This document shows, in pieces, positions 10,133-21,504 of a stretch of DNA of 64,000 nt. The notes under the pieces are model-generated. The model was given only the letters and a program-made list of their open reading frames with translations, did not search any database and was not told the DNA's origin. Positions within the stretch are counted from its first letter, which is position 1; each line of letters begins with the position of its first letter. The translations under genes were made by a program, and so were the position numbers. This DNA is from Patescibacteria group bacterium (GTDB lineage: Bacteria; Patescibacteriota; Minisyncoccia; Phycocordibacterales; Phycocordibacteraceae), in the NCBI GenBank assembly GCA_040384725.1, contig JAZKIS010000009.1:14075-78074 (forward strand). The letters are read 5' to 3'.

Positions 10133-10203
10133 TGCGGGATCGTCTAATGGTAGGACAGCGCTCTCTGGAGGCGTTTATCTAGGTTCGAGTCCTAGTCCCG
10201 CAG
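10133..10203 (+). tRNA. tRNA-Gln (anticodon CTG)
   Basis: Manual cloverleaf. U1:A72 acceptor TGCGGGA/TCCCGCA, as in bacterial tRNA-Gln. D-loop AATGGTA, anticodon loop CT-CTG-GA, T-arm CTAGG-TTCGAGT-CCTAG, discriminator G. Confidence 0.85.
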
Positions 10204-10295
10204 CAATCAAGGAGGTGGTTTCGTGCGTCCTAAGAGCGTGGCTTGTGTTCTGTCAGGCAGGTGTGGAATTCCGCTGGAAAAGGTAGAATTTCAAT

Positions 10296-11357
10296 ATGAC
10301 TGGCCGCGAACTTCCCAAACCAAATACTCAATTCTTGAGTTGGTTTTATGGAGAGCATAAGAAAGGTACTTTGGTACTGAATCCTAAATATCAGCGAAAC
10401 CCGATCTGGTCTATAGGACAGAAATGTTTCTTGATAGATAGTCTTATTTCAGGCTCTCCAATACCTCAGGTATTTATAAACATACAGACTACCGGAAAGG
10501 GTGCGAGCAGGGCTACCCAATATGAGATTGTTGATGGTCAGCAGAGGTTGAGAGCTGTACTAGAATTTATGGACGACGAGTACGCCTTAATTCGCACGAC
10601 TGCGAAATCTTATCCTGTCTCTGACATATACGAACCGCAGATCGGGAAGAAGTATTCCGAACTTCCAGACAGTCTGCAAAGTGCAATATGGAACTATTCC
10701 TTAGCTGTGCAGGAATTGCGCGAATGGAACGATGTCGAAATTCGAGCTCTATTCCGTCGTTTAAATTATGTGGTTGAAAAGTTGTCTAACCAGGAGCTCA
10801 GGCACTCTCAATATTTCGGTGAATTTGTAGGAGCAGTTGAAGGACTCTCATCAGCAAAATTCTGGGATGATTTAAATTTCTTCACTCGAAGAGATTCACA
10901 GCGGATGAAAGACGTTGAATACGTCAGTGAGTTATTTGCGATATTGATTGATGGTATTCAGGACCAGCAAAAAACACTTGATCGTTTTTATGCGGACTAT
11001 GACGTTGTATTTCCACATAAAAGTAGGTATATCTCGACCTTCGGCCGAACACTCGAGTCGTTCAGGACAATTCAAGAGTATCTAGAGGAAAGTCGATTCA
11101 AGAATAAGGCGGATTTCTATACTTTGTTTGCTGCAGTCTCTGAGATAAACACTCGTACTAAAGTTGCAACTGACTTGAGTGAGGCAGAATCAGCATTAAG
11201 GCGATTTGAACAGGAGCTGGCAGCTCCTGTTGAACAGTTAAGAGGAAAGGCAAGTCGTTATTACCAGACGGTTATAGAAGGCCCAAATAAGAAAGCTAAG
11301 CGCGAAGAACGTACAGCTATATTTCGGGAAATCTTATCAAGAGCCCTGAAAACTTAA
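10296..11357 (+). CDS. DUF262 (ParB/sulfiredoxin-like) domain protein
   Basis: N-terminal YQRNPIW...LIDSLISGSPIPQVF...YEIVDGQQRLRAV carries the DGQQR signature of DUF262, the N-terminal module of GmrSD-type enzymes. No DUF1524/HNH is found within the same ORF. Confidence 0.75.
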   Translation: MTGRELPKPNTQFLSWFYGEHKKGTLVLNPKYQRNPIWSIGQKCFLIDSLISGSPIPQVFINIQTTGKGASRATQYEIVDGQQRLRAVLEFMDDEYALIRTTAKSYPVSDIYEPQIGKKYSELPDSLQSAIWNYSLAVQELREWNDVEIRALFRRLNYVVEKLSNQELRHSQYFGEFVGAVEGLSSAKFWDDLNFFTRRDSQRMKDVEYVSELFAILIDGIQDQQKTLDRFYADYDVVFPHKSRYISTFGRTLESFRTIQEYLEESRFKNKADFYTLFAAVSEINTRTKVATDLSEAESALRRFEQELAAPVEQLRGKASRYYQTVIEGPNKKAKREERTAIFREILSRALKT

Positions 11358-11363
11358 GCGCAT

Positions 11364-12044
11364 ATGAGTTTGGCTAGCGAAGAGGTACGCAAATTCATCG
11401 ACAGGGTGCAGGTGGCTGGAAACTACCACCGCGAGCTACTATCCGCGGTTCATTTAAAGACCCATCAGGCTTCGCTTGAAACGATGCTCTCGGAACAGTT
11501 TGTATTTAACATGGTGGTGTATTGGGAAGTTTTTGTGAGTGATCTCCTCCTTTCCTATCTTGTCATGTCCCCAGCACAATACCGCAAAACCCTGCGCGAA
11601 AAGATTCAAGCCTCAATAAAAGATCGTTATGGCAGCGCTGCAAGTAGAACTATTAGTTTCAGAAACGAAACGAGACTTTCGTTAGCTCAAGCAGCAGCCC
11701 TAGTTGACCCAAAAGATTTTAATATATCAGTAATTTCAGCTGATAATTTGGCAAAACGAGCAAACGAGATTCTTGCTGCAAAATATGCGAAGTCCTTTAC
11801 TCTTGACCCGGATGACAGACAGTTTGTAGATTTTCTAATTTCTATTAGAAACTATCTTGCGCACAGAAGTCAGGGATCACGAACTGCCTTGAGAAGCGCG
11901 GTTACATCTCTCCGGGGAATTAACTCTGACCTTAGTGGGAACATTACGAATGTGGGGACCTACCTTAAGGCAAAGAATGCTGCTGACGAGACTCGAGCAC
12001 TTGTCATAGCTCGCCGCCTAGAAGAGTTGGCTCTTAAACTCTAA
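11364..12044 (+). CDS. Putative HEPN-domain protein (Rx4-6H motif)
   Basis: 226 aa, mostly helical, with FLISIRNYLAHRS giving R-x4-H near the C-terminal third. It lies 7 bp downstream of the DUF262 gene on the same strand. Confidence 0.5.
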   Translation: MSLASEEVRKFIDRVQVAGNYHRELLSAVHLKTHQASLETMLSEQFVFNMVVYWEVFVSDLLLSYLVMSPAQYRKTLREKIQASIKDRYGSAASRTISFRNETRLSLAQAAALVDPKDFNISVISADNLAKRANEILAAKYAKSFTLDPDDRQFVDFLISIRNYLAHRSQGSRTALRSAVTSLRGINSDLSGNITNVGTYLKAKNAADETRALVIARRLEELALKL

Positions 12045-12071: not shown

Positions 12072-12893
12072 GTGCGTGGTTTTATAATAGACATGGATAT
12101 TTCTAAGCTTCCTGCACCGGATAGCGAAGAGCTCAGAGCTCTTGTTGAGAATGGGGTGACAAGAGATATATACGCTGCACTCTACGCGAATATGGATAAG
12201 TCGTTATCCATATCGGAAATCCGTTCCCTTCTAGGACTTGTTTCGGGAGAACAAGAGCATCTAAATCGTCGACTCCGTGATCTTTATGGTGCTTTTGAGA
12301 TTGAACGCACAAGACGCGGCAGGGATACGCTTTATAGATTGGTGTCTCGTGCAGAAAATCCTCATCAGACCGCTGGGCGAATTTCAGCAAAAGTCAGAGC
12401 ATGGATTCTCCGAGATCAACGCTGTAAGCAATGCGGGCGCACCCCTTCAGAAGACAAGATAAAGCTGCACGTCGATCATATTATTCCTCAGGAGTGGGGA
12501 GGCACTGATGCGGAAGAGAATCTACAGGCCCTATGTTCAGAGTGTAATGAAGGGAAGAAGAATTTCTATTCAAGTTTTAATGAGTTTGCGGAGAGCATCA
12601 AACAAGCCATAAGTTACGATGAACCCCACAAGCGTATTGGCGAGTTACTGAAAGCTTTTAATGGAAAACCTGTTCCATCTGACTTGCTAGAAGTGGTAGC
12701 AAAAGCAAAGCAATACCAGGACGATTGGCAGAAAAGAATGCGCGAGTTACGCGAACTTGGTTGGGATTATTCGTTTGAAAAGCGCAGGGAAGGATCTAGA
12801 GTAAGAACCTACTACGTCTTGCTGCACTCAGAGTCGTGGCCTGAGGGAAGTATTCGCGCTGAGATTAGGCGACGAGAACTCGAGAAGAAGTAG
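12072..12893 (+). CDS. HNH endonuclease
   Basis: CKQCG...KLHVDHIIPQEWGG...ENLQALCSECN is the canonical HNH/His-Me finger with a Cys4 zinc site. It has a roughly 120-aa N-terminal extension and a 100-aa C-terminal extension. Confidence 0.8.
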   Translation: MRGFIIDMDISKLPAPDSEELRALVENGVTRDIYAALYANMDKSLSISEIRSLLGLVSGEQEHLNRRLRDLYGAFEIERTRRGRDTLYRLVSRAENPHQTAGRISAKVRAWILRDQRCKQCGRTPSEDKIKLHVDHIIPQEWGGTDAEENLQALCSECNEGKKNFYSSFNEFAESIKQAISYDEPHKRIGELLKAFNGKPVPSDLLEVVAKAKQYQDDWQKRMRELRELGWDYSFEKRREGSRVRTYYVLLHSESWPEGSIRAEIRRRELEKK

Positions 12894-13896
12894 CCTTTGG
12901 TTTCTTCGGGGCGGTTGGTTTTCGGTCACCCTGCTCGATTGCCTTTCTGATTGCCTTTCTGATTGCTTTGCCAACAGCTTCAGCGACGGGAGGAGGAAAG
13001 GCATTACCAACCTGGCGATAAGCTGCGGTTTTTTTCCCTGAGAATTTCCACTCCTTTGGGAAGCCTTGAATGATTGCGGCCATCTGAACAGTCAGGCGGG
13101 GGTCACCATCAAAATCTGCTTGGGGAGCAAACTCAACTAAGCCCTTCCCGTCTACTCCAAGCGCGAGCCACGCTTTTTTCGCTCGTGTGGGTCCCAAATC
13201 AGCACCCCCGTGCTTTTTAGATCCTCCAACTAGTGTTGGTCCAACCTTAGAAGCTTTTTTCCGCCATGCATCAACTTTCTTCCAGCCGGCACTTGCCATC
13301 AGTTCATATAAAGCATCACCAACAGTCACAATCTTTTCCGTATTTCCTATGGGCCATTCGAAATGCTCGGCATACGGTTTCTGTAAGGCAACCATAAGTG
13401 TGCGCGGCCGAAGTTGAGGCACTCCAAAATGTGCTGCATGGAATAGCTTCCACGAGACAACATACCCCATGCGCTCCAACTTCTTTGTAATGACATCCCT
13501 ATAATCTTTGAACTTCGGATCTAAGAGACCTCTTACATTTTCAATCAATACTGCCTTGGGCTGAGTTTCTTTAACGAGCTTAAGCATGGCAGGAAAGAGA
13601 TCACGCTCATCAAGTTCTCCAAGTTGCTTTCCAGCTTTTGAGAATGGGGGGCAGGGAACACCTCCCGCAACAAGATCAACACCTTTGTACTGAGTTCCCT
13701 TAAATTTATTTAAATCTGCTTGAATGACATTCCATTTGGGACGATTAAGTCGGAGTGTATTGCAAAATTGCTCTTCAATTTCTACCAGGGCTGCATGCTC
13801 AAACCCAGCGCGCTCGAGACCTATGGCCTGGCCACCTGCGCCTGCGCAGACTTCCAAAGAGGTTAATTTTTTACTTGATGCCTTAGCCATAAACAT
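12865..13896 (-). CDS. DNA (cytosine-5)-methyltransferase
   Basis: Motif I LEVCAGAGG, motif IV GGVPCPPFSKAG (PCP variant of PCQ), motif VI ENVRGLL, motif X QVGNAFPPP. It is convergent with the HNH gene and overlaps it by 29 bp at the 3' ends. Confidence 0.9.
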   Translation of the reverse strand: MFMAKASSKKLTSLEVCAGAGGQAIGLERAGFEHAALVEIEEQFCNTLRLNRPKWNVIQADLNKFKGTQYKGVDLVAGGVPCPPFSKAGKQLGELDERDLFPAMLKLVKETQPKAVLIENVRGLLDPKFKDYRDVITKKLERMGYVVSWKLFHAAHFGVPQLRPRTLMVALQKPYAEHFEWPIGNTEKIVTVGDALYELMASAGWKKVDAWRKKASKVGPTLVGGSKKHGGADLGPTRAKKAWLALGVDGKGLVEFAPQADFDGDPRLTVQMAAIIQGFPKEWKFSGKKTAAYRQVGNAFPPPVAEAVGKAIRKAIRKAIEQGDRKPTAPKKPKATSSRVLVA

Positions 13897-13914: not shown

Positions 13915-14943
13915 CTAACTACGCTGTACGGGCAAAGCGCCTAGGAAAATCCTTTTTTCTTTCAAAATAAGTTGATTTTTCAAACACGACAAAAGTTCAC
14001 GCTTCTCCAGGAGCGTCCCTTCCCGCAGGACATATTTCGCATAATAACGAATATCAATATCTTCTGTATCAATTTCGTCAGAATTCCCGGAGACGACATT
14101 TTGAAAACGTCTGAATCTTCTCACCTCGTCCATGAGTTTATGTTTGACCCTTATTTCATCAATGTCTGTTTGATCTAGAAGCGCCTCGAATTGAGCAATC
14201 AGCTCTTCTTCTCGTAGGTATCCGCCACAGCAGTCTCGGTCTTTTGACCTACTACATCCGTAGTAAACGTATCTCGCTGTGAGACCTGTCTTTTTAATGT
14301 GCTTGAATTTTTCTTCAGCAGATACCCCTGAACCGCATAGTCCACAAGTAAGTAGTCGAGTGAAGGCGAATTCCTTCGTCTCACTCCGGACTATGCGGTC
14401 CCGCTTGAGTTGAGCTTGTGTCAGATCGAAGAGCTCTCGCGTGATGATTGGCTCATGCAGTCCGTTGTACCAATTGCCGCTCTTGGCTGGGTATTCGAAC
14501 TGTCCGTAGTAGAAGGGCATACCCAGGATCTTGTGGACGTTGCTGAGACTAAGATGTTTATTGCCACGGGGCGTCCTCAAGTTCAAATCAAACCTTAGCC
14601 AGTGGTATACCTTCCGCCCAGTCCATTTCTCGTACGCGACCTTCTCGAACATTTGCTTAATGATATGAGCTCGTTCCGGATCAGTTATGACATGTCCGCG
14701 ACGATCTGCTCGATTCTGACTTAGGTATCCTGTTGGTGCGGGAGAAGGCCATAGCCCCATCTCGCACCGCATGCGTAGACCTCGCTTCACGTTCACGCTC
14801 TTGTTGTCGTTATCGAGCTTCGCCTGAGAACAGAGAATCATGAGGAGGAATTTCTCGCTCGGCGAGTTGCTGAAGCGCTGCCCGTACGTCCGTATCTCAA
14901 CGAGTGCTTTCTGGTCCATAAGATCGACCAGAGTGCCGAGGTC
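13915..14943 (-). pseudogene. Large serine recombinase lacking the N-terminal catalytic (Ser) region
   Basis: The recombinase domain is retained, with a zinc ribbon (CGLCGSGV...YYGCSRSK..C) and a coiled coil. Homology to the resolvase domain starts only at ...DLGTLVDLMDQKALVEIRTYGQ.. (the late E-helix region). Upstream codons are not recombinase-like and hit a stop at 15049..15051. Confidence 0.7.
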
Positions 14944-14944
14944 T

Positions 14945-15250
14945 CCAGCGTTGCTGGATGCGTTGAAGGAATGCCGGGGTTGGGAAGAGGAGTTACAAGG
15001 AAAGACCGTTGCAGGTACGTCAGCCGGTGTCTGCTTCCTGTCTCGGTACTACTATAGCCTCAGCAATCTAGAGGTTCGAGAAGGTCTCGGACTCTTGCCC
15101 GTTAAGGCACTCGTACATTATCGCTCTGATTATAATGCCCCTAATATTGACTGGGACGTGGCATACCAAACGCTTGATGAGTATGGAGAGAATCTCCCGA
15201 TCCTCGCGCTTCCAGAAGGAGGATTCGAGATCATTGAAAAGACGTTCTAG
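14945..15250 (+). pseudogene. C-terminal fragment of a peptidase S51 (dipeptidase E/cyanophycinase-like) gene
   Basis: GKTVAGTSAGV...GLGLLP... matches the S51 nucleophile region (GxSAG) and the downstream part. There is no N-terminal half. Upstream DNA is the antisense of the recombinase. Confidence 0.5.
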
Positions 15251-18378: not shown

Positions 18379-18407
18379 AGGCCCGCAACCATGCGGGCCT
18401 TTTTCTT
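18379..18407. terminator. Bidirectional terminator between convergent secreted-protein gene and RND permease gene
   Basis: aggcccgca-acca-tgcgggcct followed by ttttt. Confidence 0.6.
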
Positions 18408-21400
18408 ATATACGTTCGTACCGCTCCTTCACGGCCTTGCCTGGCCAACGATGGTAGAGAACGGGCACGAGAACGAGCGTGAGGATCATGGACCACGCGA
18501 GTCCGAACATGATAGAGAACGCGAGAGGCCCCCACATGCCGGCGGCTAAGGAAAGCGGCACCATACCGACGACGGTCGTAATGGTCGTAAGTACGATCGG
18601 ACGGAAGCGCGACGAGGATGCCTCGACCACGACGTCGGTGAGGCTCTTGTCGCCATGCTCCTTGCCGATACGCGCGATGGAATCCATGAGGATGATCGCA
18701 TGGTTTATGATCACGCCGGCTAGCGCGATAACGCCGAGCATCGAAGGGAAGGAAAGCGGCGAACCGGTGAGCATGAGCCCGAAGAACACGCCTACTAACG
18801 AAAGCGGGATGATTGAAAGCAGGTAGAGCGAGTGGCGGAACGAGTTGAACTCGAGCACGAGGATCGCGAGCATGAGCGCTGCGCCTGCGAGAAGCGCGAT
18901 ACCCATCTCGGCGAACGACTGGTTCACGTCCTCGCTCTCGCCACCGATCTGTAGCGTGACGCCTGGAGGCAGCGTGACGTCTTCCATGCGCTTCTCGAAG
19001 TCAGAGGCTATCTGGATTGGGTTGCCGCCCTTGGCCGCATCCGCCGTGAGGGTCGCTATACGCGTGCCGTCTTCATGGTGGATAGAGGCGTTTGCGGGCT
19101 CGTACGTAATGGTCGCGATCGTCGAGAGCGGCACCGGTCCGTTCCGGCCCTGTACCGAGAGGCCTCGCACGGCGTCAATGGTGGCATTCGCGGTCTCCGA
19201 GGGGTCGCGATAGCTCGGATTAAGGTCGAGCTTCGTACGCACTTCAATATCGGTGGCGCCCTCGCGGATATCGGTCGCTTTCACGCCGAAGAGTGCGCTG
19301 CGGAGCGTATCGGCAACCGCGAGCGGCGATACGCCGAGCTCGGCAGCGCGTGCTGAGTCGAGACGAACGACGAACTCAGCGCCATCGTCCTTCATGGAGG
19401 TTTCGATGTTCGTGGTGCCAGAGACTTCTGAGAGTACGCGTGCGCCCTGATCGACGGCAGTGCCAAGATCTGCAAGATCATCCCCGACGAAGGTGGCGGA
19501 GATAGCGGCTCCGGTCGGCGGGCCTCCTGCAGGCTCCGAAACGGTAATGCGCGCTGATGCGATGTCGGCGAGTTCCTTGCGAAGGCTCGTGACTATCTCA
19601 GCGCTCGATTCCTCACGGCCTTCCGCGAGATTCACGGTTATGTTGCCGATGTTGCTGCCAGAGGCGCCGGTGCCGCTGAATGCGCTACCAACCCCTACGT
19701 CAGAGACGAACGACTCGATACGGTCGTCGCCATAGAGCATCTCCTCGACCTCGCGCACGGCAAGGTCGGTATCGGTGAGCGCCGAGCCGAGCGGCTTCTC
19801 GATCTCTACATAGATGAAATCCATATCCTCGGCAGGGAAGAACACTACCTTCACGAGTCCGGTGATAGGAAGGAGGAGCGAGAGCACGAAGAGGCCGATC
19901 ATGGTCCACAGGAAGCGATTCTCCTTCTTCCGGTCTCCGAGGATCCGGCGAAGGTACCCCTCGTACCATGCTTTCGCGCGCTCGTTGTACTCTTCCTGGA
20001 TCTTCTCGATGCGCGACGGCTCTTTGCGGATGATGAATATCGCTAAGAGGGGAACGAGGCCGAGGGCGACGAAGATCGACGCGAGGAGCACGAAGATAAC
20101 CGTGAACGGGATCGATGCGATGAACTTGCCGACGATGCCTGAGAGGAAGAAGAGCGGGATGAATACCGCGACGGTAGTGAGCGTTCCGGCGATGAGCGGC
20201 CACGCGTATTCCTTGATCGCGAGGATAGCGGCCTCGCGCTTTCCAGCTGTCTTTGCGAGACGGGTATGGATCGCCTCGACCACCACGATGCCTGAGTCGA
20301 CGAGGATACCGATCGCGAGGATGAGAGAGAAGAGCGATATGAAATTGATGGTGTTCCCGGACGCAGCGAGGCCGATGAAGGCGATCAGGAACGAGAGAGG
20401 GATCGACGCGGCAGCGATAAGGGATTCGCGCCATCCGAGGGTGAGGAGCAGAAGAATCATAACGAGCACGATCGTCTCGAGGCCGACGCGCGAGAGCTCG
20501 ACGAGGTCATGCTCGATGTCCTCCGCAGCGTCGTACGTGATGACGGTCTTAGTGCCTGAGAGCGATCCTGCCTCGAGTTCCTTGAGCGTCTCTTTCACGT
20601 CGCTTCCGGTCTCGAGAATGTTGCCGCCGCGGCTTTTGAATATTGAAAGGGTAAGCGCGGGGGTGGATGGCTCGCTTTCGACAGAAACGCGCGAGAACGT
20701 CGACGCGTCTGCTAACCCGTCCACGACGTCCGCGACGTCACCGATACGTATCGAGCTGCCGCCAGGGCCTGCAAGGGCGATGGCCCGTACCTGATCGGTC
20801 TCCGTGAGGCCTGCCTCAAGGCGAACCGCGTAGCGGATGCCGTCTACCGTGATGCTGCCGGCAGGAGACGCGACGCCCGACGCGCGGAGCGCGTTCGTAA
20901 CGTCGCTCATGGAAAGCCCGTACTGACGGAGCTTCGCCTGCTCGACGATTACCTGCACCTGACGCTCACGGACACCAGAAAGGGACACGGAGGAAACGCC
21001 GCGAACGCGCTCGAGCTCATCCTTCACCTCTTCGCCGAGTGCCGTGAGTTCTGCGGGAGCTAGCTCGCCCGCGATTGAGAGGATAAGGATCGGCTGATCC
21101 GCGAAGTTGATATCGCTCACGATCGGATCGTTCGCTTCCTCAGGAAGCTCAGGACGGACGGTATCTACCTCGTCCTTAAGAAGCTGTATCGACTTGTCGA
21201 GGTCGGCATTCGCCGTGAACTCGACGGTGACGGACGAGACGCCGTCCCCTGAGCTCGAGGTAACCTTCGAGACGTTCTCGATGCCAATAACGCGGTCCTC
21301 GATCTTGTCCGTGATGAGCGACTCGACGTCTTCAGCGGAAGCGCCCGGAAGCACGGTAGTAACGATACCCATCGGGATCTGGACCTCAGGAGCCGATTCC

Positions 21401-21504
21401 TTCGGGATAACCATAACGGCGTAGAAGCCGCCAAGAATAAGCACGATCGAAAGAAGGATCGTGAAATGATGCTTGTCGATGAAGAACGTCCAGAATTTCG
21501 CCAT
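18406..21504 (-). CDS. RND-family efflux transporter permease (AcrB/AcrD/AcrF-like)
   Basis: 1032 aa with 12-TM architecture and two large periplasmic loops. N-terminus MAKFWTFFIDKHHFTILLSIVLILGG. Confidence 0.95.
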   Translation of the reverse strand: MAKFWTFFIDKHHFTILLSIVLILGGFYAVMVIPKESAPEVQIPMGIVTTVLPGASAEDVESLITDKIEDRVIGIENVSKVTSSSGDGVSSVTVEFTANADLDKSIQLLKDEVDTVRPELPEEANDPIVSDINFADQPILILSIAGELAPAELTALGEEVKDELERVRGVSSVSLSGVRERQVQVIVEQAKLRQYGLSMSDVTNALRASGVASPAGSITVDGIRYAVRLEAGLTETDQVRAIALAGPGGSSIRIGDVADVVDGLADASTFSRVSVESEPSTPALTLSIFKSRGGNILETGSDVKETLKELEAGSLSGTKTVITYDAAEDIEHDLVELSRVGLETIVLVMILLLLTLGWRESLIAAASIPLSFLIAFIGLAASGNTINFISLFSLILAIGILVDSGIVVVEAIHTRLAKTAGKREAAILAIKEYAWPLIAGTLTTVAVFIPLFFLSGIVGKFIASIPFTVIFVLLASIFVALGLVPLLAIFIIRKEPSRIEKIQEEYNERAKAWYEGYLRRILGDRKKENRFLWTMIGLFVLSLLLPITGLVKVVFFPAEDMDFIYVEIEKPLGSALTDTDLAVREVEEMLYGDDRIESFVSDVGVGSAFSGTGASGSNIGNITVNLAEGREESSAEIVTSLRKELADIASARITVSEPAGGPPTGAAISATFVGDDLADLGTAVDQGARVLSEVSGTTNIETSMKDDGAEFVVRLDSARAAELGVSPLAVADTLRSALFGVKATDIREGATDIEVRTKLDLNPSYRDPSETANATIDAVRGLSVQGRNGPVPLSTIATITYEPANASIHHEDGTRIATLTADAAKGGNPIQIASDFEKRMEDVTLPPGVTLQIGGESEDVNQSFAEMGIALLAGAALMLAILVLEFNSFRHSLYLLSIIPLSLVGVFFGLMLTGSPLSFPSMLGVIALAGVIINHAIILMDSIARIGKEHGDKSLTDVVVEASSSRFRPIVLTTITTVVGMVPLSLAAGMWGPLAFSIMFGLAWSMILTLVLVPVLYHRWPGKAVKERYERI

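Follow-up and report, generated by a model that had tools for sequence, protein, structure and literature searches.

Adjacent genes for an HNH endonuclease and a NaeI-type C5-cytosine methyltransferase (MTase) in the 64,000-nucleotide stretch of patescibacterial DNA analyzed here (the window) probably constitute a self-contained Type II restriction-modification (R-M) cassette carried on a decayed integrative island. Both genes are intact, and all catalytic residues are present. A first-pass annotation of the sequence had described the two open reading frames as convergent with a 29-bp overlap, which was confirmed for both genes (Table 1), and had proposed them as a candidate Type II R-M system. 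That proposal is now well supported by the conserved pairing of the two genes, observed at 56 of 56 scorable loci and in three gene orders.

Table 1. Features of the HNH/MTase cassette and its surroundings, in window coordinates
Feature	Position	Strand	Evidence or detail
tRNA-Gln(CTG)	10133..10204	+	ARAGORN; left edge of low-GC island
DUF262/GmrSD_N gene	10296-11357	+	PF03235, E 8.7e-20
HEPN-like gene, 226 aa	11364-12044	+	Directly after DUF262 gene
HNH nuclease ORF	12093..12893 (alternative GTG start 12072)	+	ORF list
Modeled N-terminal winged-helix domain of nuclease, aa 20-86	12150..12350	+	Model secondary structure
HNH (beta-beta-alpha-Me) core and Cys4 zinc site	12387..12572	+	Pfam, invariant alignment columns
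Modeled C-terminal winged-helix domain of nuclease, aa 178-245	12624..12827	+	Alignment, model, profile comparison
Overlap of HNH and MTase convergent 3' ends, 29 bp	12865..12893		From coordinates
C5-cytosine MTase ORF	12865-13896	-	343 aa
12-bp perfect tandem repeat in MTase	12937..12966	-	Tandem Repeats Finder: period 12, 2.5 copies, 100% match
MTase target-recognition block GPTLVGGSKKHGGADLGPTRAKKAW, aa 219-243	13168..13242	-	Nearly every residue invariant
MTase motif IV PCPPFS, catalytic Cys82	13639..13656	-	P81 C82 P83 P84 F85 S86 invariant, 10 sequences
Large serine recombinase, N-terminally truncated	13915..14958	-	Pfam: Recombinase and Zn_ribbon_recom only

Linkage of the nuclease and methyltransferase genes

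The surroundings of HNH homologs were scanned at 66 loci. At every one of the 56 loci that could be scored, the HNH homolog adjoined an ortholog of the window MTase (46-76% identical), with the two genes in convergent (47), tandem (6) or divergent (3) order. These pairs were found in Patescibacteria, Actinomycetota, Acidobacteriota, Alphaproteobacteria, Verrucomicrobiota and other groups. Since the order of the genes varies over three arrangements, their linkage is functional and does not reflect a frozen gene order. Order-independent linkage of nuclease to methylase, one property expected of a Type II R-M system, was thus found for this pair.

The overlap between the two genes ranged from 4 to 90 bp among relatives and was exactly 29 bp at two loci (L001 and L169). 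The same convergent, overlapping pair was present in three further metagenomic contigs, and in Bacteroidota a shorter winged helix-HNH homolog came after, and overlapped, a 65%-identical MTase. A search of a plasmid collection returned a single partial match (47% coverage), and the cassette is therefore not typical of plasmids.

Distant HNH homologs were found beside different Dcm-type MTases (L034, L037, L044, L068 and L070), as expected of a diversifying restriction endonuclease (REase) family. One intact distant homolog from Lachnospiraceae (L067, 38% identity) was surrounded by housekeeping genes and had no MTase close by. At another locus (L022), a pseudogenized HNH gene beside an IS element lacked an MTase over the remaining 3 kb of the contig, a single case that fits toxicity of the nuclease without its methylase. 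Database matches to the MTase family (>8000) far outnumbered those to the HNH family (779), an asymmetry typical of R-M systems. The best 120 of the >8000 MTase matches carried generic names only.

The mismatch-repair gene Vsr (PF03852) was the next most common neighbor of the pair, at 32 of the 66 loci. The frequency of this companion argues that the MTase really produces 5-methylcytosine (m5C). The HNH protein was also considered as a stand-in for Vsr, a role that was rejected given the co-occurrence of the two at these 32 loci. No controller protein was present with the HNH/MTase pair, and a search of the rest of the window detected neither a Vsr nor a NaeI gene.

Domain organization of the two proteins

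The HNH reading frame encodes 273 residues from a GTG at 12072 or 266 residues from an ATG at 12093. The ATG is the likely start, since the deposited protein and all homologs begin there. Pfam identified an HNH domain (PF01844, E 1.2e-11, aa 118-164) as well as HNH_5 (PF14279), and the 779 homologs of the family are conserved over their full length. In a 20-sequence family alignment, the D-H general base (D128-H129), two Asn residues (N143 and N152) and the CxxC...CxxC zinc site (C111, C114, C148 and C151; 266-aa numbering) were invariant. The His base, metal-binding Asn/His and Cys4 zinc site of the HNH/beta-beta-alpha-Me superfamily were therefore all found, and the Pfam match and invariant residues bear out the earlier description of a full His-Me finger with a Cys4 site.

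The N- and C-terminal extensions of this core, for which a winged-helix fold had been raised as a possibility, are conserved throughout the family and were modeled as winged-helix domains in an AlphaFold2 model of the protein (mean pLDDT 87). In the N-terminal domain, a conserved helix (HLNRRLRDLY) precedes a beta-hairpin, and the Foldseek matches of this domain were ArsR/SmtB winged-helix proteins. The C-terminal domain carries the invariant motif QYQDDWQKR[LM]RELR..GW, and in the short HNH partners from Bacteroidota the N-terminal domain has a related helix motif, EWGRRVRELR. Profiles of the two winged helices gave a weak in-register match (hhalign E 0.002). As modeled, the architecture of the nuclease would be winged helix-HNH/Cys4-winged helix.

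Sequence matches of the nuclease in the PDB were limited to the HNH domains of Cas9, IscB and EcoKMcrA, and the PADLOC REase_II models matched the HNH core only. No full-length match was found among solved structures, named families or characterized restriction enzymes, and no description of this nuclease family was found in literature on HNH with vsr/cytosine methyltransferase, GCCGGC or FseI. The nuclease belongs to a widespread, uncharacterized HNH family.

The MTase matched PF00145 (E 1.6e-68) over aa 12-313. Motifs I (CAGAGGQ), IV (PCPPFS), VI (ENV), VIII (QLRPR), IX and X (GNAFPPP) were intact and in canonical order, and all catalytic motif residues were invariant in an alignment of 10 sequences. 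Motifs I, IV, VI and X, which the first-pass annotation had listed, have accordingly held up in the alignment. The "PCP" form of motif IV is characteristic of the family rather than a lesion, since it is invariant across orthologs, and the disabling mutations that had been named as grounds for doubt did not appear on closer alignment, all family-invariant residues being retained. The target-recognition block was near-invariant across HNH-only, HNH+Vsr, NaeI+HNH and Bacteroidota cassettes in a 10-sequence alignment. The MTase had also been credited with a Lys-rich tail encoded by the 12-bp repeat. The repeat is real, but it encodes only KAIRKAIRKA, in the helix that follows motif X, where it forms a 4-residue insertion relative to nine aligned orthologs (a 4-column gap); the end of the tail that is rich in Lys and Pro is encoded 3' of the repeat, by sequence that extends into the stretch shared with the HNH gene.

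NaeI-linked methyltransferases and predicted specificity

NaeI is a Type IIE enzyme of the PD-(D/E)XK fold that cuts GCC|GGC (PDB 1EV7 and 1IAW). A survey of NaeI covered 80 independent metagenomic loci encoding NaeI-family endonucleases ~50% identical to crystallized R.NaeI (PDB 1EV7). The window-type MTase family was present at 65 of these 80 loci, at 49-68% identity to the window MTase, and 14 of the 80 also encoded an HNH homolog, in several layouts. At 7 of the 66 HNH loci, all actinobacterial, a NaeI-family protein (PF09126, E 4e-108) was translationally coupled upstream of HNH. The sharing of one MTase family by NaeI and HNH indicates that both nucleases tolerate the same methylase. Further, the block APTLVGGSKKHGGADLGPTRAK..W..LGVDG was invariant in the MTases of NaeI-linked and HNH-only cassettes. 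By locus association and this shared recognition block, the window MTase is assigned to the NaeI-cognate orthogroup.

Since the MTase family is resident at NaeI loci and its recognition block is invariant across cassette types, the predicted specificity of the MTase is GCCGGC. A methylase family that is very large and spans phyla would thereby gain a likely specificity. In a low-power test, the window showed no depletion of GCCGGC (36 observed versus 29 expected). Window 4-, 5- and 6-mers showed no specific GCCGGC depletion, and 6-mer palindromes pooled over the 66 HNH and 80 NaeI loci showed no specific GCCGGC signal, in tests of similarly low power. Even around true NaeI genes GCCGGC is only mildly depleted, and such a test is hence of little power.

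The exact site, cleavage geometry, oligomeric state and methylation sensitivity that we infer for the R-M pair are as follows. The MTase would be an active C5-cytosine methyltransferase, most likely methylating a cytosine in GCCGGC of the host DNA. The nuclease, with a one-metal, Cys4-stabilized HNH site between two related winged-helix domains, would most likely recognize that site in its unmethylated form, or a site that includes it, and would probably do so as a dimer that contacts DNA via the conserved "RRxRELR" helices. Cleavage of both strands would follow, and 5-methylcytosine would block recognition. Relative expression of the two genes might, speculatively, depend on their convergent and overlapping transcription or on the DNA-binding domains of the nuclease itself.

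The HNH family, with several hundred members, is likely an alternative restriction partner of the NaeI-type MTase family. Should this be confirmed, the nuclease would represent an iso- or neoschizomer of NaeI built on a new domain layout. It would then hold some interest for enzyme discovery and would illustrate the swapping of unrelated nucleases onto one methylase. A more far-reaching reading, which is conceivable if unlikely, holds that winged helix-HNH-winged helix proteins are a structurally new REase class that has repeatedly taken over the NaeI-type MTase. Such enzymes would either cut GCCGGC with a geometry unlike that of NaeI or NgoMIV or read a longer, rare site that contains GCCGGC, perhaps an 8-bp FseI-like one, and the NaeI-coupled cassettes would be two-nuclease systems without refractory sites.

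Where NaeI is also present, the HNH protein is not needed as "the" nuclease and so could have an accessory role. It would then be tied to the MTase in a nonclassical way, as a DNA-binding regulator or as an accessory nuclease with a tuning or backup function, which might consist in nicking or in cleavage of sites refractory to Type IIE enzymes such as NaeI. NaeI needs a second site and does leave refractory sites (PMC4081073). HNH forms one operon with a bona fide NaeI at the seven actinobacterial loci and co-occurs with NaeI at the 14 surveyed loci, and two winged-helix domains of the ArsR/SmtB type are typical of regulators. We nevertheless consider this role rather improbable. Most cassettes, in Patescibacteria, Acidobacteriota and Bacteroidota, hold no other nuclease except Vsr, so that an accessory HNH would have nothing to assist; the HNH catalytic residues are invariant family-wide; and a repair role is already taken by Vsr where the two co-occur.

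The island, its upstream genes and related systems

The proposed Type II cassette lies in a region (~10-16 kb) with a GC content of 0.44-0.50, versus 0.57-0.62 outside. The order of elements, namely tRNA-Gln, the DUF262 and HEPN-like genes, the convergent HNH and MTase genes and a 5'-truncated serine recombinase, suggests a decayed integrative island; its flanks consist of housekeeping genes or recombinase. In a tblastn comparison with a full-length homolog (L002), the alignment of the window recombinase started at residue 104. The missing first ~103 residues correspond to the Resolvase-domain portion of the full-length relative, and at a related locus (L170) a full-length recombinase with a Resolvase domain adjoins the same HNH/MTase pair. 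The truncated serine recombinase is the remnant integrase of the island, and because the island has decayed, current activity of the pair is not guaranteed. The first-pass annotation had mentioned neither this tRNA-Gln-flanked island with its truncated recombinase, nor the NaeI type of the MTase, nor Vsr as a frequent third member.

The pair might be an inactive relic, with intact-looking genes that are no longer expressed or functional on an immobilized island. The truncation of the recombinase, the absence of Vsr from the window and the lack of GCCGGC avoidance in host sequence would fit this reading. A promoter scan of the island also gave no clear excess, but the scan relied on a sigma-70 consensus, which may not be valid for this phylum. 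Given that both reading frames are full length and keep every family-invariant residue, we judge a relic to be quite improbable.

It is very improbable that the HNH protein is a modification-dependent (Type IV, McrA-like) or homing-type nuclease that merely travels with the MTase on mobile elements. Many HNH homologs are labeled "McrA" by JGI, EcoKMcrA was the best whole-chain Foldseek match, PADLOC gave a weak mREase_IV match (2e-05), and the cassette travels with serine recombinases. However, an m5C-directed nuclease would be suicidal beside a constantly associated m5C methylase, the two genes stay linked across phyla whichever of the three gene orders they take, no homing site is conserved in their flanks, and the single HNH pseudogene without an MTase fits toxicity in the absence of the methylase. 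With its similarity to McrA limited to the HNH core and its gene almost always beside an m5C methylase, the nuclease was not placed in the Type IV McrA-like class.

Upstream of the Type II cassette, the DUF262 gene matched NsnA (1e-35) and PD-T4-2_A (3e-24) in PADLOC, and the DUF262, HEPN-like and HNH genes are co-directional with gaps of 6 and 27-48 bp. A DUF262 gene lay within a few kb of the HNH/MTase cassette at 7 of the 66 loci, where its position, strand and partner (HEPN_RiboL-PSP or RelA/SpoT) differed, and none was found near the closest HNH relatives (L001-L008 and L169-L171). Homologs of the 226-aa HEPN-like protein always came directly after a GmrSD_N gene and had neither an HNH nor a Dcm gene nearby. 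Since the pair occurs elsewhere without HNH or methylase, the DUF262 and HEPN-like genes are a separate two-gene module. The earlier suggestion that HNH supplies the missing nuclease of a split GmrSD-like system (DUF262 plus DUF1524), which would be modification-dependent and have the MTase as an unrelated neighbor, is favored by the short co-directional gaps and the recurrence of DUF262, but it is largely refuted and retains hardly any probability, because the Pfam scan of the HNH protein returned HNH and HNH_5 with no match to DUF1524, and its conserved partner is the MTase. An m5C methylase beside a GmrSD-like module is thus no oddity, as two independent defense modules would share one small island.

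Two further assignments were rejected. Menshen consists of NsnA followed by the NsnB ATPase and the NsnC effector (PMC12065111); here no NsnB ATPase is present, and the gene after the DUF262 gene encodes the HEPN-like protein. Druantia type II was considered because its DruM2 was the best PADLOC match of the MTase (E 4.7e-148, full length). Only DruM2 matches, the island has no room for DruF/G/E, and no DruE-sized helicase was found near the MTase in the 6-20 kb ORF list, whose one large ORF (18406-21504) fell outside the scan. The DruM2 match therefore indicates a shared MTase orthogroup and not a Druantia system, and caution is warranted where the PADLOC DruM2 model strongly matches this MTase family in a locus without other Druantia genes.

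Among known systems, PD-T4-2, GmrSD and Menshen resemble the window in the upstream gene, which matches GmrSD_N, NsnA and PD-T4-2_A, but the upstream module is separate from the HNH/MTase pair and is without a DUF1524 nuclease. EcoKMcrA (Type IV, PDB 6GHC), the best Foldseek/PDB domain-level match, likewise combines an N-terminal DNA-binding domain with a C-terminal-type HNH. This match, however, spans the HNH part only (TM ~0.2), and McrA, which attacks methylated DNA, stands alone, whereas the window nuclease family is almost always found beside a methylase. Known HNH restriction enzymes (PMC4081073) share with the window nuclease a single-metal HNH, a CxxC...CxxC zinc site, small size and a partner methylase, but no similarity was detectable beyond the HNH core. 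No solved structure shares the modeled winged helix-HNH-winged helix layout. The NaeI system differs in its nuclease, as the window has no NaeI gene and the HNH fold is unrelated to PD-(D/E)XK, but the two share the same MTase family with its invariant recognition block, and Vsr often accompanies cassettes of either kind.

The gene pair and its products

In agreement with the first-pass annotation, which had described an HNH endonuclease gene convergent with and overlapping a C5-cytosine methyltransferase (MTase) gene, the ORF list and Pfam recovered two intact genes with the expected domains. The HNH ORF matched PF01844 (E 1.2e-11, aa 118-164) and the MTase ORF matched PF00145 (DNA_methylase; E 1.6e-68, aa 12-313). 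The described extent of the HNH ORF stood except at its 5' end: the likelier start is the ATG at 12093 (266 aa), the position shared by the deposited protein and every homolog.

Features of the HNH/MTase locus, in window coordinates
Feature	Position	Strand	Description
tRNA-Gln	10133-10204		Left edge of low-GC stretch
DUF262/GmrSD_N gene and 226-aa HEPN-like gene	10296-12044		Compact module resembling PD-T4-2
HNH ORF	12072-12893	+	273 aa (ORF list); Pfam HNH
MTase ORF	12865-13896	-	343 aa (ORF list); Pfam DNA_methylase
Overlap of HNH and MTase ORFs	12865-12893		29 bp (ORF coordinates)
12-bp tandem repeat in MTase tail	12937-12966		2.5 copies, perfect (Tandem Repeats Finder)
Large serine recombinase	13915-14958		Immediately right of MTase gene; Recombinase and zinc-ribbon domains only (Pfam)

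A database search returned 779 homologs of the nuclease, the best 120 of which were mostly ~266 aa long, 55-75% identical and conserved end to end. Alignment of 20 sequences revealed invariant Cys111/Cys114/Cys148/Cys151, Asp128-His129, Asn143 and Asn152, residues predicted to make up the HNH core with its structural zinc site. In the same alignment, the C-terminal part carried an invariant block, QYQDDWQKR[LM]RELR..GW, and a helix related to it, HLNRRMRELY, lay toward the N terminus. An AlphaFold2 model (mean pLDDT 87) placed winged helices at aa 20-86 and 178-245 on either side of the HNH domain (aa 99-160). The two winged helices aligned in register, though weakly (profile-profile, E 0.002), which suggests an internal duplication. 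Foldseek and PDB sequence searches found no full-length match among solved structures; the PDB matches were to HNH domains only (EcoKMcrA, Cas9, IscB) or to ArsR/SmtB-type winged helices, and PADLOC and NCBIfam models matched only the HNH core. The nuclease is a member of a winged helix-HNH-winged helix family that is uncharacterised and of which literature searches turned up no account.

The MTase contained all catalytic motifs. Its motif IV, PCPPFS, is unusual, yet it was invariant among orthologs and thus represents no defect, so the PCP variant noted in the first pass is not a disabling lesion. The 12-bp repeat reported in the MTase tail was also found; it encodes KAIRKAIRKA directly past motif X and coincides with a 4-column gap in nine aligned orthologs, which identifies it as a one-turn insertion in the window lineage. 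Database names were generic among the best 120 of more than 8000 MTase matches. Orthologs from Streptomyces and Amycolatopsis (L020, 8318-9592; L026, L029 and L035) carried a C-terminal extension of ~100 aa resembling a winged-helix domain in sequence, and L020 and L029 contained a second, paralogous Dcm gene ~1 kb away.

Linkage of the nuclease and methylase genes

In a scan limited to a single genome per species, 79 loci encoded nuclease relatives; they came from Patescibacteria, Actinomycetota, Acidobacteriota, Alphaproteobacteria, Verrucomicrobiota and others. When MTase neighbours were scored by tblastn with the window proteins, an MTase 46-76% identical to that of the window directly adjoined the HNH gene in each of the 56 loci scorable for both genes, in convergent (47), tandem (6) or divergent (3) orientation. 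Many convergent pairs overlapped by 4-90 bp (exactly 29 bp in genome locus L001), and most loci without a visible MTase were cut by the contig end. Three metagenomic contigs, retrieved independently, had this convergent pair too, with overlaps of 29-35 bp, and one of them carried a full-length serine recombinase where the window has a truncated copy. In Bacteroidota, a 65%-identical MTase was followed, with overlap, by a winged helix-HNH protein of 198-203 aa that shares 32% identity with the window nuclease, and more distant HNH homologs adjoined other Dcm-type methylases. The cassette was essentially absent from the plasmid collection. Survival of the linkage through changes of gene order and across phyla indicates that HNH and MTase form a functional pair, and adjacency in every scorable locus and in three gene orders upholds the earlier reading of a Type II restriction-modification (R-M) pair.

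Several individual loci differed in content. In Paraoerskovia marina (L022, 6060-10077), an intact NaeI-family gene was followed by an HNH pseudogene, which bore a premature stop and a Tyr in place of a zinc-site Cys, and then by IS transposases, with no MTase before the contig end. A Lachnospiraceae locus (L067, 6920-7597) lacked a nearby MTase; its intact homolog of 225 aa (38% identity), likewise winged helix-HNH-winged helix, was flanked by housekeeping genes, one for GMP synthase and one for a dehydrogenase, and could be a solitary member with another role. In a Myxococcaceae locus (L012, 1-4833), the HNH homolog was followed convergently by genes for a 637-aa MrfA zinc-binding/DUF1998 protein and for a DEAD-box helicase of 723 aa, which together make a DISARM- or Druantia-like pair, and the MTase side was cut by the contig end. 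In a close Patescibacteria relative (metagenomic contig L169, 791-9946), the pair lay within a larger defence cluster. Besides a full-length serine recombinase, this cluster contained two N6/N4 methylases and a second Dcm next to a HATPase_c_3 plus Hypoth_Ymh protein.

Recurrent neighbours and the NaeI family

Clustering of neighbouring ORFs recovered HNH in 66 loci and MTase in 60, followed by the mismatch-repair endonuclease Vsr (32 loci), a 305-aa protein (7 actinobacterial loci) and DUF262 (7 loci). Vsr (PF03852) was usually encoded between the HNH and MTase genes, which argues that the MTase really produces 5-methylcytosine. The HNH protein as a replacement for Vsr was ruled out, since Vsr co-occurs with it. 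The window contained no Vsr gene, so that this repair route would be closed to deaminated 5-methylcytosine.

The 305-aa protein was a full-length NaeI-family endonuclease (PF09126, E 4e-108) that shared ~50% identity with crystallised R.NaeI (1EV7, E 9e-81), and its stop codon overlapped the HNH start by 4 bp. Among 80 metagenomic NaeI loci, 65 had an MTase 49-68% identical to that of the window, the remainder being mostly short contigs; Vsr was found in 28 and HNH, of the long or short type and in varied layouts, in 14. In C5-cytosine methylases, target specificity is set by the segment from motif VIII to motif IX. This segment was almost invariant across HNH-only, HNH+Vsr, NaeI+HNH and Bacteroidota cassettes; with the linkage seen in the NaeI loci, this places the window MTase in the NaeI-cognate orthogroup. 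NaeI recognises GCCGGC, the specificity predicted by association for the MTase. NaeI shows Type IIE behaviour with refractory sites (PMC4081073, where the site is misprinted as GCC|CCG). Because NaeI and HNH repeatedly share one MTase, its methylation probably covers the HNH target as well. The first-pass annotation had suggested looking for under-representation of a short palindromic motif; the window contained 36 GCCGGC sites against 29 expected and so showed no under-representation, and pooled HNH loci gave no depletion signal. Even around true NaeI genes depletion was only mild, and the test thus has little power.

The order NaeI, HNH and convergent MTase, with the 4-bp overlap, was seen in the Actinomycetota loci L015, L016, L023, L025 (6060-8805), L027 and L033, where two unrelated nucleases accompany one MTase, as also in loci L085-L112. 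NaeI and HNH came together in other layouts as well (e.g., L107); in L099, L113, L126 and L136, the HNH was of the short type.

Island setting and relation to known systems

Between ~10 and 16 kb of the window, GC content fell from 0.57-0.62 to 0.44-0.50. From the tRNA-Gln gene just left of this stretch, the order was DUF262, HEPN-like, HNH and convergent MTase genes and a truncated recombinase gene. The recombinase aligned to a full-length homolog only from residue 104 on; it has thus lost ~103 N-terminal residues, and the element looks immobilised. A full-length relative on metagenomic contig L170 had a Resolvase domain besides the Recombinase and zinc-ribbon domains (Pfam). No direct repeats flanking the island as candidate att sites were identified. 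Where the recombinase gene is truncated, its 5' end was overlapped by a 136-aa ORF without a Pfam match (14840-15250, +), which may be a real gene or a remnant at the right junction of the island. The locus is a small, immobilised genomic island with defence genes.

Defence genes often co-locate, and the first-pass annotation had alternatively cast the HNH protein as the missing nuclease of a split GmrSD. The upstream DUF262 gene did match GmrSD_N, NsnA and PD-T4-2_A. However, the closest HNH relatives had no DUF262 neighbour, and in the seven DUF262-bearing loci positions, strands and partners (HEPN_RiboL-PSP or RelA/SpoT) differed. The 226-aa protein had no match in the Pfam scan, weak matches to ApeA-type HEPN proteins and an Rx4H motif (RNYLAH) read from the sequence. 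It had 20 homologs in a database of 5.8 billion clusters; on four contigs, the homolog lay 3-6 bp after a ~350-aa GmrSD_N gene, with no HNH or Dcm nearby. Thus, the split-GmrSD reading is not supported, and the DUF262/HEPN-like module and the HNH/MTase pair are independent and merely co-located. Menshen, which requires the NsnB ATPase (PMC12065111), was rejected because the locus has no NsnB.

The HNH and MTase genes are probably a Type II R-M pair on a decayed integrative island. The MTase, which is of NaeI type, would mark host DNA at GCCGGC. The nuclease would act, probably as a dimer, by reading the unmethylated site through its winged helices and cutting with a one-metal HNH site, and methylation would block it. 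No controller gene is present, and the conserved overlap of convergent 3' ends could, speculatively, couple expression of both genes. The pair would gain interest should the nuclease prove to cleave in a new pattern, to read a longer site or to cooperate with NaeI where the two are coupled.

In PADLOC, the window MTase matched best to DruM2, the methylase model for Druantia type II (E 4.7e-148). That system was rejected, since by the ORF list the island has no room for another Druantia gene. Such a match to a NaeI-type MTase without partners suggests that DruM2 matches may not be specific to Druantia.
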